DNA of 43,360 nucleotides, from assembly GCA_041602195.1 (NCBI GenBank), contig JBFIGS010000001.1:1-43360 (forward strand). The letters run 5' to 3'. Position numbers and translations under genes: made by a program. The notes beneath the pieces were generated by a model. It saw only the letters and a list, made by a program, of their open reading frames with translations, was not told the DNA's origin and did not search any database. This document shows positions 39,592 through 43,360 of the stretch, piece after piece. The stretch comes from Sediminicola sp. Its GTDB lineage: Bacteria; Bacteroidota; Bacteroidia; Flavobacteriales; Flavobacteriaceae. Positions within the stretch are counted from its first letter, which is position 1. Every line of letters starts with the position of its first letter.

Positions 39592-41688
39592 ATGAGAAGA
39601 TTATTAGTACACATTGTCCTATTTTCATTCAGTTATTTAGCAACTGCACAATCCAATGATGGTTTTCTGGCCCAGTCACAGACCAAGGAAAAACAAGTGG
39701 AGGATTATTTCTTGGAAACTGTCGATTTTGATCAGTATAAGATACATCTAAAGACATTGACCCAAAAACCACACGTGGCCGGAAGTAAGGCCAATGAGGA
39801 AGTGAGGGATTATATGGCCAATGTCATGAAAAATGCGGGGATGAAAGTAGATCTATATCCCTATGACATCTATATGTCCAAAAACCCTGGAACCTCCTTA
39901 ATAGAATTGGTTACACCTATCCGGGAACCCCTGAACCAACAAGAGTTTATTTTGGAAGGTGATGCCTATTCTTCCAGTGCCGACCTATGGAAAGGTTGGA
40001 ATGCCTATTCGGGCAGTGGGGATGTAACGGCAGAAGTGGTGTATGCCAATTATGGTACCAAGGAAGACTTTGAAAAATTGAAGGAACTCGGCGTTTCCGT
40101 TAAGGGCAAAATTGTCTTGGCCAGATATGGAAAAAACTTTAGGGGCTATAAAGCAAAATTTGCGGAGGAAAATGGTGCGGCCGGACTCATTATATATACT
40201 GATCCGGCAGATAGTGGTTTTACAAAAGGATTGGTGTACCCAGAAGGAGTGTATTCCAATGAAAGTGCCATACAACGTGGGTCTGTTCTTACAGAGGAAT
40301 TTACAGGAGATCCTTTGACCCCTTATGAGCCTGCTCTTCCTTTGGATGGAAAGAAAAAAATTAAACGCCTGGATCCCAAGGATACCAATATGCATACCAT
40401 TCCGGTAACACCTATTGGTTACGGGTCTGCCCAAAAAATATTGGGACTAATGTCCGGGAAGGTAGTTCCGGAAGGCTGGCAAGGCGGACTTCCTTTTACT
40501 TATCGATTGGATGGGGGAGATGAATTGAAATTGCGTTTGATGGTGGATCAAAAAAGGGATTTTGTAAGGGTCCATAATGTAGTGGGTACCATAAAGGGTA
40601 CTGAATATCCTGATGAATGGATAATTCTAGGATGCCATTATGATGCTTGGGGGTACGGAGCTACCGATCCCAATAGTGGAACGGCCATGTTATTGGGTCT
40701 TAGCGAATCGTTGGGAAAACTAGCCAAAGAAGGAAAAGGACCAAAGCGCTCCATATTGATTGCACATTGGGATGCCGAAGAGCATGGGGTAATCGGTTCG
40801 GCGGAATGGGTAGAACAAATGAAAGATGAACTAAACGCCAAGGCCGTGGCCTATCTCAATTTTGATGGGGGAGTATCTGGTAAGAATTTTGGGGCATCGG
40901 CCTCTCCTACTTTAAAGAAGGTACTGGTTGAAGCTTCCAAGGAAGTGAATTATCCAGAAACGGATAAAACGGTTTACGAGGTATGGAAAGGAGATAATGA
41001 CGCTCCCAAAATAGGAAACCTGGGTGGTGGCTCGGATCATATAGGATTTTATATGCATGTGGGAGTACCTTCCTTAAGTGGTGGTACATCTGGACCAACA
41101 TTGTATCATACCAATTATGACAGTTTTGGTTTTTATGAAAAATTTGTAGACCCATCATTTAAAATGGGGCCTATGGTAGAGCAACTGGTAGGAATAATGA
41201 CCCTGAGGTTGGCCAATGCGGAAATCATCCCATACGATGTAAAAAGATATGCAACGGACCTTAAGTTGCATTTTGAAAAGGCAACTGCCGGTGTAAAGTC
41301 ATTTGACAAAAATTTTGAGGGTTTTGGTCTTGTGGATTCTTCACTTGTGAAATTAGAGGAGGTTGCTGCCCGATTCGAAACTAGGTTGACCACTGTGTTG
41401 AACAACAGTAGTCTGTCTAAAAATGAGATCAAATCTATCAATTCAAAAATGCTGGCCCTAGAAAAAAGCTTTATAGATTCTAAGGGGATGTATTATGGGG
41501 ATTGGTACAAATCCCTTTACGCTTCTACAGATCCGTTCAGTGGCTATGCTTCATGGATGCTTCCGGGGATAGAATATGAAATATCCCTAAAATCTTCAGA
41601 CCGACTAGAGGAATGGGACATGCGATATAGCAAGGCTATTGATAATTTAAGCGGTAAGATCAATGTTTTGATATCTGAATTGAACTAA
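39592..41688 (+). CDS. Secreted M28 peptidase, glutamate carboxypeptidase II-like (PA and TfR-dimer domains)
   Basis: PHVAGS, YANYG, GCHYDAW, DPNSGT, WDAEE, GSD, YHTNYD. Confidence 0.92.
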   Translation: MRRLLVHIVLFSFSYLATAQSNDGFLAQSQTKEKQVEDYFLETVDFDQYKIHLKTLTQKPHVAGSKANEEVRDYMANVMKNAGMKVDLYPYDIYMSKNPGTSLIELVTPIREPLNQQEFILEGDAYSSSADLWKGWNAYSGSGDVTAEVVYANYGTKEDFEKLKELGVSVKGKIVLARYGKNFRGYKAKFAEENGAAGLIIYTDPADSGFTKGLVYPEGVYSNESAIQRGSVLTEEFTGDPLTPYEPALPLDGKKKIKRLDPKDTNMHTIPVTPIGYGSAQKILGLMSGKVVPEGWQGGLPFTYRLDGGDELKLRLMVDQKRDFVRVHNVVGTIKGTEYPDEWIILGCHYDAWGYGATDPNSGTAMLLGLSESLGKLAKEGKGPKRSILIAHWDAEEHGVIGSAEWVEQMKDELNAKAVAYLNFDGGVSGKNFGASASPTLKKVLVEASKEVNYPETDKTVYEVWKGDNDAPKIGNLGGGSDHIGFYMHVGVPSLSGGTSGPTLYHTNYDSFGFYEKFVDPSFKMGPMVEQLVGIMTLRLANAEIIPYDVKRYATDLKLHFEKATAGVKSFDKNFEGFGLVDSSLVKLEEVAARFETRLTTVLNNSSLSKNEIKSINSKMLALEKSFIDSKGMYYGDWYKSLYASTDPFSGYASWMLPGIEYEISLKSSDRLEEWDMRYSKAIDNLSGKINVLISELN

Positions 41689-41713
41689 AAATTAATCAAA
41701 GCCACATTAATAT

Positions 41714-42400
41714 ATGTCCATATTAACCCCCTTGGAAAGATCACTTCAAAATTACAGCAGTGCTTTTATATCAATCTTGGAACCCTTTCTTTTGGAGCAC
41801 TATACGCCATTGGACCTATCTACGGAAAACACTTCTCTGGATGGGGTTGATATTACCAATGCAGAAGCTTGTCAAAGACATATAGATTCCATTTTGAGGA
41901 AGAATAGGGCAGAGGTAGCCTATGGTGGTTATTTGGAACAAAGAAACTTGTACAATGGGAACGGACATTTTTTAGCATCTGAAGATAAACGGAACGTTCA
42001 TTTGGGAATGGATTTTTGGGCCAAGGCAGGAACATGGGTGCGGGTGCCGATTGCCGGGAAGGTCCATAGTTTTAGGAATAATGATACTTCAGGCGATTAT
42101 GGTCCGACCATCGTTTTAGAACATATTTTAGAGGGGATTAAATTCCATACCCTCTATGGACATTTGTCCGTAGAATCCTTGAACGGACTGTTTGTGGGAA
42201 AAGAATATGTCAAGGGGGAAATACTTGCATCATTGGGGACGCCCGAAATCAACGTAAACTATGCCCCACACCTCCATTTTCAGATTATTGAGGATATAGG
42301 CGAATACAAAGGGGACTATCCGGGGGTTTCTACTACAAAAGAGTTGGAATATTTCGCCAACAATTGTCCGAATCCCAATTTTTTATTGAAGGTGAATTAG
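41714..42400 (+). CDS. M23 family metallopeptidase without signal peptide
   Basis: HLGMD (HxxxD), LYGHL, PHLHFQ (HxH). Confidence 0.88.
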   Translation: MSILTPLERSLQNYSSAFISILEPFLLEHYTPLDLSTENTSLDGVDITNAEACQRHIDSILRKNRAEVAYGGYLEQRNLYNGNGHFLASEDKRNVHLGMDFWAKAGTWVRVPIAGKVHSFRNNDTSGDYGPTIVLEHILEGIKFHTLYGHLSVESLNGLFVGKEYVKGEILASLGTPEINVNYAPHLHFQIIEDIGEYKGDYPGVSTTKELEYFANNCPNPNFLLKVN

Positions 42401-42408
42401 GGTCATAC

Positions 42409-42579
42409 CGATTAACTACCTATTAATCCGATAAGTGATTTTAACTTCAAATTCACTTATCGGATTTTTTTTGCACTTCAACCAAACTTTTGTCAATAGC
42501 CGAAAAATAAGGGGTTTGAGCGAGTTTAGAAGATCATAGCCTACATGCTGTGGTACCTTTACAGAACAAAACCCAAGTC
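42409..42579 (+). promoter_or_regulatory. Upstream region copy A (homologous to 43129-43304)
   Basis: Shares CGATTAACT, TTTGTCA, CCGAAAAATAAGGG and AACAAAAC at near-identical spacing with copy B. Confidence 0.65.
42425..42472 (+). terminator. Terminator-like hairpin, overlapping conserved upstream boxes of the next gene
   Basis: AATCCGATAAGTGA-N14-TCACTTATCGGATT running into a T-tract. Confidence 0.65.
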
Positions 42580-42828
42580 ATGAAAACTATTTTAACATTC
42601 GTCTTTATCCTTTTTATCGGAGTTGTTGCCCAAGCACAGGAAACAACAAATGACATTAAAGTTGAGAATGTTGAAACTACCATCGTTACTTCTAATACCT
42701 CTACCAAGTATAACGAAGTATCTACAGAGAACAACAACGAGGTTGCTCGTTTGTACAAGTTCAAAAATGCAAGAGTTTTGAAGGCTTTGACCTTTACTAC
42801 CAAAAGAAACAATGCTAAATTGGCCTAA
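42580..42828 (+). CDS. 82-aa secreted microprotein, paralog A
   Basis: ATG at 42580; Sec signal MKTILTFVFILFIGVVAQA; a paralogous start at 43305 with several synonymous differences supports coding. Confidence 0.85.
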   Translation: MKTILTFVFILFIGVVAQAQETTNDIKVENVETTIVTSNTSTKYNEVSTENNNEVARLYKFKNARVLKALTFTTKRNNAKLA

Positions 42829-42830
42829 TC

Positions 42831-42938
42831 ATGGTTGAAATCATTCTGAGTACTGGTTTACTGTATTATGTATATTCTGTAATAGCACCAAAACTTCACA
42901 AAAGGCACTTAAGAACCATAAAGGTTAGAAGCAAGTAA
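42831..42938 (+). CDS. Putative 35-aa single-TM microprotein
   Basis: MVEIILSTGLLYYVYSVIAPKLHKRHLRTIKVRSK; ATG 2 nt after the upstream stop; hydrophobic N-terminal half and basic tail. Confidence 0.5.
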   Translation: MVEIILSTGLLYYVYSVIAPKLHKRHLRTIKVRSK

Positions 42939-42999
42939 AAGACATCGATTCCTGAATACATAGGTGGACCTCTTAGGCAATGAAAGTTGATTTAGGCCG

Positions 43000-43101
43000 C
43001 TATTGCTTTTTGGATAGACTTCGGTGAGTAAGTAGGATGATATGACTAAATAGGTCCTTCCCATCGAAACTGTTCCTCGTAAAACACCCAAAAAGCAATA
43101 G
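43000..43101. repeat. Long imperfect hairpin closed by a perfect 14-bp inverted repeat
   Basis: CTATTGCTTTTTGG (43000-43013) pairs with CCAAAAAGCAATAG (43088-43101), with nested inner pairings. Confidence 0.7.
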
Positions 43102-43128
43102 GAAGTAATGTGTACGGTTATGCTGTAT

Positions 43129-43304
43129 CGATTAACTGCACAAAATATCGGTAACCGATATTTTGTGCCATTGCCGTTTGTCGACCTTTTATTACACTTT
43201 GTCCCATCCTTTGTCAGATACCGAAAAATAAGGGACTTTAGACGAATTACATCGAGTTCAAATACACAATGGGCGTTCTACTTATATAACAAAACGTTAC
43301 CATT
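43129..43304 (+). promoter_or_regulatory. Upstream region copy B (homologous to 42409-42579)
   Basis: Same ordered boxes as copy A, offsets within 1-2 nt. Confidence 0.65.
43138..43168. repeat. 31-bp palindrome
   Basis: GCACAAAATATCGGT-A-ACCGATATTTTGTGC. Confidence 0.85.
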
Positions 43305-43360
43305 ATGAAAGCCATCTTAACTTTAATCTTTGTTCTTTTTATCGGAGTTGCTGCCCAGGC
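43305..43360 (+). CDS. Partial secreted microprotein, paralog B, running off the window edge
   Basis: MKAILTLIFVLFIGVAAQ(A); 46/56 nt and 13/18 aa identical to the start of paralog A. Confidence 0.85.
   Translation, partial: MKAILTLIFVLFIGVAAQ

Follow-up and report, generated by a model that had tools for sequence, protein, structure and literature searches.

A conserved upstream cassette of putative promoter boxes and a predicted start-codon hairpin accompanies a family of small secreted protein genes in marine Flavobacteriaceae

The 43,360-nt stretch called the window here is a whole contig, JBFIGS010000001.1 of Sediminicola sp. (assembly GCA_041602195.1). Near its end lie two paralogous genes, A and B, for small secreted proteins, and each is preceded by a conserved non-coding block of ~120 nt. 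The alignment of the two upstream regions extends over ~170 nt, and both blocks end 53–56 nt ahead of the ATGs. The block is tied to the small gene at a fixed distance across genera, its conservation sets in abruptly at the first of a series of short boxes (box 1), and it shows neither a conserved fold nor covariation. We propose, with moderate confidence, that each copy of the gene has its own cassette of ~175 nt, in which a ~120-nt non-canonical promoter with protein-binding boxes is followed by a ~45-nt hairpin that restrains translation. The element would be a new cis-regulatory cassette shared across the family, with the well-known layout of a promoter/operator and then a predicted translational hairpin.

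The small gene was found in 11 of 61 related genomes. It is present in 8/8 genomes of the window's own genus, in 3/29 genomes from other genera of the family, and in 0/24 genomes from other families. The own-genus genomes carry arrays of 2–4 copies with a period of 700–735 bp, and the block is present at every copy aligned in the 11 genomes. In a wider scan, the number of coding relatives rose to at least 360. Its 75 best loci belong to Sediminicola, Maribacter, Zobellia, Arenibacter, Ulvibacterium, Eudoraea, and Spongiimicrobium, and the carriers include Sediminicola arcticus, Zobellia uliginosa DSM 2061, and Maribacter algarum. The block profile has 90 matches on the gene strand across these loci. 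Among copies for which 180 nt or more of upstream sequence is available, the block ends 52–56 nt before the ATG in 71/72, and the distance is exactly 53 nt in 50 of them. The exception is a shortened form (L085:101-236), in which the ATG lies ~22 nt past the block and the 5′ untranslated region (UTR) hairpin region is deleted. This locus is a natural variant without the predicted translational hairpin. The genes that flank the cassette vary between loci and are frequently on the opposite strand. The boundary of the block is sharp, with 0.10–0.23 bits/position in the 70 nt before it vs. 0.76–1.13 bits/position inside (73 non-redundant of 87 instances). The suggestion, made earlier from the window alone (the original prediction), that both genes share an upstream element is thus borne out, and it extends to the whole gene family.

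Every box named in the original prediction was found where it had been placed (Table 1). The same prediction held that the boxes are better kept than the spacers, and this is also the case: among 57 sequences outside the own genus, the boxes have 1.23 bits/position vs. 0.86–0.95 for the rest of 42409–42579. The list of boxes was right as to position and incomplete in that it missed the best-kept box, a T-run plus GCACTT.A.CC (42465–42483), which reaches 1.36 bits/position outside the own genus. Four of the boxes are variants of a single 8-mer with a CG core. Two of them, box 1 (CGAT.AA) and box 2 (CGGTAA; TTCGGTAA), are in the forward orientation, and boxes 3 and 5 are their reverse complements. 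CGRTDA plus its complement occurs 221 times, vs. 37 ± 6.4 times in shuffled sequences, and the sites are fixed at −173 and −153 (forward) and at −124 and −84 (reverse). Distances of 20, 33, 40, and about 20 nt separate successive CG cores, which is close to whole helical turns; the last value is an estimate from the box 6 column.

The genome scan with the motif, which had been recommended together with the original prediction, was run with a profile from 28 copies in 11 genomes, both window copies included. In the 2.96-Mb own genome, the full profile matches just the two window copies (E-values in Table 1; next best 0.09). Three sub-block profiles gave no further match in this genome. The 14-mer CCGAAAAATAAGGG is likewise unique to the two copies; a third match, on contig C165, arises because this contig overlaps the window end. 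Weak matches to the box 5–6 stretch lie at unrelated places in the own genome, none of them ahead of a sigma gene. Across the genus, 16/17 exact matches to the 17-mer pattern of the T-run box (the box 4 pattern) fall inside the gene arrays. The single exact match outside known arrays is at G005:C12:172308-172324. One-mismatch matches to this pattern do occur off the arrays in the genus, and the three in the own genome have no other boxes beside them.

The block is conserved as primary sequence, in agreement with the earlier view that DNA sites are favored over a conserved RNA fold. On the test set of 72 sequences (pairwise identity under 92%), RNAalifold returned 0 pairs over the full region and no consensus fold for the last 48 nt. 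In 40-nt sliding folds compared with dinucleotide shuffles, the block core (columns 60–105 of alignment A3) has a mean z of 0 to +0.4. The part from box 1 to box 3 is mildly structured (mean z −0.4 to −0.9; 16–24% of windows below −1.5). Alignment-free arm-swap tests were null for four sub-regions (p 0.25–0.8) and gave a mild signal over box 1 to box 3 (46/72, p 7e−4). An Rfam search of 41500–43360 with E-values up to 10 gave only chance-level microRNA and small RNA rows, the best being sroD at 25.6 bits against a cut-off of 50, and six other loci gave no match at E-values up to 1. We therefore found no covariation-backed structure of the kind expected of a structured cis-regulatory RNA in the 120-nt block. 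Since it is the sequence that is conserved, recognition of DNA by a protein is favored, and recognition of single-stranded RNA is less likely. Box 1 with box 3 and box 2 with box 5 are 77.7% complementary, vs. 77.2% in shuffles (73/500 shuffles as high) and 22–40% in slid controls, and column composition accounts for this complementarity in full. A pseudoknot made of these two pairings was considered and rejected; it shows no covariation, and a change on one side is not followed by a change on the other.

If a protein reads the boxes, the question is what kind of promoter the block contains. PMC6847099 describes the Bacteroidota sigma-A promoter by a −33 TTTG and a −7 TAnnTTTG/TAHHTTTG element, in which T-12, A-11, T-8, T-7, T-6, and G-5 are nearly invariant. 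The block is at the place expected for such a promoter, before a leadered gene, and it holds T-rich tracts and TTTG-like words, but it does not have the near-invariant T-12/A-11 plus TTTG. An exact TAHHTTTG is found in 1/76 cassettes, with no conserved column, and in 3/76 of the 200-nt upstream flanks vs. 6.8 ± 2.6 in shuffles. PMC9723704 describes three alternative-sigma classes of Flavobacterium psychrophilum, namely SM4 (sigma-54), SM5 (TAnnTTGY), and SM6 (extracytoplasmic function (ECF) type with a CGT box). As in those promoters, the block has invariant, rigidly spaced CG dinucleotides (CGT or CGA) and precedes a small gene set without a sigma-A box. It differs from them in its matches, which are 0/72 for sigma-54 TGG-N8-TTGC (GG-N10-GC), 2/72 for a strict ECF AAC-N16-17-CGT (−35 AAC, −10 CGT), and 11/72 for SM5, the last without a shared column. 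Canonical Bacteroidota sigma-A, sigma-54, SM5, and strict ECF promoters were thus not detected in the block or the preceding 200 nt; an Escherichia coli-type promoter scan is not applicable to Bacteroidota.

Because the flanks before box 1 are unrelated and the neighboring genes often reversed, any promoter common to the loci is expected inside the cassette. A loose GAAA-N14-16-CG[TA], running from box 5 to box 6, is found at one alignment column in 51/72 sequences. If this were a promoter, transcription would start at the end of the block; we regard the match as a lead, not a finding. An ECF-like mechanism is conceivable because ECF motifs differ between groups; in the own genome, no gene for an ECF sigma factor showed this motif. 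In the mechanism that we envisage, a sigma factor or transcription factor dedicated to the boxes, with its gene at another place, would recognize them, and transcription would start inside the block or at its end, with three candidate positions.

The last ~45 nt of the cassette contain a predicted hairpin at the start codon. The 40-nt windows beside the ATG have a mean z of −2.53, and 72% of them are below −1.5. In 68/72 sequences, the helix includes the AUG or ends at most 7 nt from it. Native folds have a mean of −9.9 kcal/mol, compared with −6.5 kcal/mol for arm-swapped chimeras, and the native fold is the lower one in 63/72. The stems vary by lineage, e.g., GCGUUUUUAU/AUAAAAACGC, ACGUUUUAU/GUAAAACGU, and CUUGCG../..CGCAAG. 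Because leader structure tunes initiation in Flavobacterium johnsoniae, as reported in PMC6847099, this hairpin is expected to restrain translation. By forming next to the AUG it would lower translation initiation, which in Bacteroidota depends on an unstructured leader. The motif AACAAAAC, counted as one of the boxes in the original prediction, is instead located in the loop and 3′ arm of this hairpin. The predicted hairpin resembles the fourU and ROSE thermometers and other translation-blocking hairpins in its AU-rich stem, in the pairing of a U-run with an A-run, in the occlusion of the start region or codon, and in a sequence that varies while the fold stays. It differs from them in that there is no Shine-Dalgarno sequence to mask and column-wise covariation is absent. 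In addition, the stems are stable (−14 to −23 kcal/mol at 37–10°C in one Maribacter copy), not marginal.

The two window copies also form different hairpins within the blocks, as the original prediction had said (Table 1). The arms of the copy A hairpin contain CGATAAGTG and CACTTATCG, and a T8 run (42465–42472) begins at its last two bases. A stable stem-loop with a U-tract is thus found after a stop codon, that of the M23 peptidase gene, which ends at 42400. The modeled box 2/box 3 hairpin plus T8 looks like the intrinsic terminator of the M23 gene, and the two motifs, which had been listed only as boxes, are in copy A the arms of a terminator-type hairpin just past this gene. In the proposed cassette, this part of copy A would double as the terminator. 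A simple terminator scan did not flag the hairpin because its loop exceeds the limit of the scan. The likeness to a Rho-independent terminator is confined to copy A, whereas copy B and most other genera have no strong hairpin ahead of the T-run. Outside the genus, the region before the T-run has no consistent hairpin (mean z −0.3 to −0.9). The T-run must therefore be kept for another reason. Pairing of box 2 with box 3 as a general terminator was rejected; it lacks covariation, and the fold z is weak outside the genus. The copy B hairpin is a perfect palindrome specific to the B-type copies of the genus, with compensatory changes in one relative (GCCCTAAATATCGG/CCGATATTTAGGGC).

Could the conserved block act as RNA rather than as DNA? 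The whole block might be transcribed in a ~175-nt leader and serve either as a conserved and mostly single-stranded landing site, to which a small RNA or an RNA-binding protein attaches, or as a pseudoknot with the start-codon hairpin. We consider this unlikely, though it has several observations on its side. The box pairs are complementary and interleaved, well above the slid controls, the arm-swap test gave its mild signal between box 1 and box 3, some compensatory changes occur in the genus-specific hairpins, and no recognizable promoter is present inside the block. A metatranscriptome of a related strain (X1) also has contigs of 150–240 nt, at depth 2–3, over the M28 and M23 genes, block A, and gene B from 43263; such contigs cannot show start, strand, or level. 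However, the complementarity is that expected from shuffled sequences, so the partners do not covary. The RNAalifold result is null, the core is unstructured, and Rfam has no match in the window or at the six other loci. Ahead of box 1 there is no conservation, and a sigma-A box is lacking in 73/76, so a shared promoter for such a leader is missing, and the X1 contig over block A, with a depth of 2.8, may be DNA or read-through from the M23 gene.

LytTR-family sites consist of two 9-bp direct repeats, [TA][AC][CA]GTTN[AG][TG], 12–13 bp apart. The original prediction placed both genes under a shared, possibly LytTR-type, regulator encoded elsewhere. The boxes would then be bound as direct repeats by a response regulator of this type that activates the peptide genes, a reading we now hold to be quite improbable. 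Box 2 follows box 1 at 20 nt as an imperfect direct repeat, a single 9-mer of the consensus fits box 3 at one conserved place in 19/72 sequences, and such regulators are common in these genomes. With the same consensus, however, a direct-repeat pair at the defining spacing (20–23 nt start-to-start) was found in 0/72. Co-location with LytTR and histidine kinase genes, a check that had been proposed, was surveyed at 30 loci, where 71 of 145 open reading frames (ORFs) of at least 100 amino acids were scanned, chosen by eye as long and non-overlapping. Such a pair adjoins the block at 1/30 loci. At that locus, in Arenibacter (L052:2-1238), genes for a histidine kinase and a LytTR regulator immediately precede the block and share its strand. 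Orthologs of this regulator (59–63% identity) occur in three genomes without the small gene (G014, G030, G032), and the carrier genomes have only matches of 28–43% identity to it, this one regulator being the one compared. The one adjacent regulator is therefore not co-distributed with the small gene, and the LytTR proposal is unsupported. The block is like the Firmicutes LytTR peptide promoters (agr, com, blp, pln) in that short imperfect repeats, spaced by about two helical turns, precede genes for small products resembling secreted peptides, and in that paralogous genes share the element. It is unlike them in that two boxes are forward and two reverse over ~100 bp, not a simple direct-repeat pair, in its Bacteroidota host, and in the lack of paired consensus 9-mers and of a co-located or co-distributed regulator. 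Another alternative is that the boxes are functionless and that the similarity is a by-product of recent tandem duplication plus the terminator of the upstream gene. The two copies do belong to a 725-bp tandem duplication, and copy A does have its terminator-type structure right past the M23 stop. This alternative is nevertheless highly implausible, as the conservation data contradict it: the distance is fixed in 71/72 copies from at least seven named genera, while the sequence before the block and the 5′ UTR have diverged, the boxes are conserved above the spacers, and the hairpin before the T-run is not consistent outside the genus.

Several results weigh against the cassette of a promoter and a translational hairpin that we prefer. 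The term promoter rests on exclusion, and no class was recognized. Regulators next to the 30 loci are assorted, each seen once or twice, and no second target of the block was found in the own genome. The X1 contig over block A (42313–42530) spans from the M23 gene through the block; it may also fit read-through transcription or DNA carry-over. As to the start hairpin, a covariance model (R1, alignment A6) gave 62.3% paired vs. 62.1% in shuffles in a column-wise count, and two pairs showed changes on both sides; the model used one register, and lineages differ in register. No strand asymmetry was found for this hairpin, and it is weak in the window's own copies (Table 1). Finally, the Wilcoxon p-values overstate the support, given that related genomes do not contribute independent sequences.

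To our knowledge, little of the regulatory DNA in marine Flavobacteriaceae has been charted, and the mapped promoters that we know of in the phylum are almost all of the sigma-A −33/−7 type. The block is a 120-nt element whose sequence is conserved in seven or more named genera; it goes strictly with a single gene family that lacks annotation, and it fits none of the described promoter classes. A bolder proposal, which we put forward tentatively and with some doubt, is that the block is the promoter of an undescribed Flavobacteriaceae class. In this proposal, four CG-core 8-mers and the T-tract/GCACTT would be read by a dedicated factor whose targets are this secreted family only, and the start hairpin would be a second, translational lock. 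If so, the genes would form a tightly gated, possibly signaling, peptide system of marine flavobacteria. The block offers a route to a new sigma or transcription factor and to the sequence that this factor recognizes, and a way to probe the role of tandemly amplified, secreted, apparently disordered small proteins. Genome annotation gains an explanation for a conserved non-coding block that recurs, as well as the position of a predicted translational hairpin by the start codon.

Table 1. Positions of the conserved blocks, their boxes and hairpins, and the neighboring genes in the window.
Feature	Position	Strand	Remarks
Conserved block, copy A	42407–42527	+	nhmmer E-value 2.5e−26; starts 7 nt past M23 stop; holds boxes 1–6
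Conserved block, copy B	43127–43248	+	nhmmer E-value 1.2e−31
Box 1, CGATTAACT in copy A	A 42409–42417; B counterpart 43129–43137		
Box 2, CGATAAGTG in copy A	A 42429–42437; B counterpart 43149–43157		
Box 3, CACTTATCG in copy A	A 42454–42462; B counterpart 43175–43183		
T-run plus GCACTTCAACC	42465–42483	+	Highest conservation of any box
CTTTTGTCA in copy A	A 42487–42495; B counterpart 43208–43216		
Box 5, CCGAAAAATAAGGG	A 42500–42513; B 43221–43234		
Box 6, CGAGTT in copy A	A 42521–42526; B counterpart 43243–43248		
Box 5–box 6 stretch	42500–42526	+	Rigid spacing; candidate promoter core GAAA-N14-16-CGW
AACAAAAC	A 42565–42572; B 43288–43295		
Copy A 5′ UTR hairpin	42544–42582	+	Pairs start codon; weak, −4.9 kcal/mol, z −0.36
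Copy B 5′ UTR hairpin	43265–43307	+	Reaches into start codon; −6.7 kcal/mol, z −1.68
Copy A hairpin	42425–42466	+	−20.1 kcal/mol; 18-nt arms 94% complementary; begins 25 nt past M23 stop
Copy B hairpin	43138–43168	+	−19.5 kcal/mol; perfect 15-nt-arm palindrome centered on box 2; no T-run
M28 peptidase gene	39592–41688		Upstream of M23 gene
M23 peptidase gene	41714–42400	+	Pfam PF01551, E-value 5.5e−12; directly before copy A
Gene A	42580–42828	+	82-amino-acid preprotein; signal peptide, conserved basic C-terminus
35-amino-acid ORF	42831–42938	+	Begins 2 nt past gene A stop; hydrophobic helix plus basic tail
Gene B	43305–43360	+	Start only, cut by window end; continues on C165, positions 86–334

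Genes A and B had been described as encoding microproteins. Their products are secreted preproteins of 82 amino acids each, in which a signal peptide at the N-terminus is followed by a variable acidic/polar middle and a conserved basic C-terminus (..VARLYKxKNARVLKALTFTTK..). We found no family match for the small secreted protein in Pfam or NCBIfam. Among the matches listed, 98 relatives are all unnamed, "hypothetical," or carry stray labels, and the Atlas returned solely unnamed Bacteroidota clusters. A full-text search of PMC and bioRxiv for the peptide motifs found no paper on them, and a 13-mer was matched only by unrelated microRNA studies. The AlphaFold model of the gene A product has a mean predicted local distance difference test (pLDDT) score of 59. 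Since confidence is restricted to the signal helix (residues 3–21), the mature part may be disordered.

The window end (43220–43360) overlaps contig C165:1-141 by 141 nt. The assembly break falls within the tandem array, and since relatives have 2–4 copies, the count of two in the window may result from collapse. The M23 gene is directly upstream of the small gene, on the same strand, in the own genus and at 6/30 loci of other genera (L040, L045, L092, L095, L096, and L099). The small gene probably had its ancestral place in the slot after the M23 gene. Both small-gene copies of G005 have a duplicate of the M23 3′ end in front of them.

The 35-amino-acid ORF behind gene A is found at the same place in all seven other genomes of the genus (57–89% amino-acid identity). 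It was not found behind B-type copies, nor in other genera. The ORF likely encodes a small membrane protein and is likely co-transcribed with gene A. The spacer between gene A and block B contains a perfect 14-nt inverted repeat (43000–43013/43088–43101), the arms of which are 74 nt apart. In six relatives, the arms vary without compensation or covariation, and the repeat is probably not a conserved structure. Strain variants in runs X2 and X3, the kind of which is unrecorded, have the A-to-B spacer swapped for another spacer of ~300 nt, with the joint running from 42824 to 43126.

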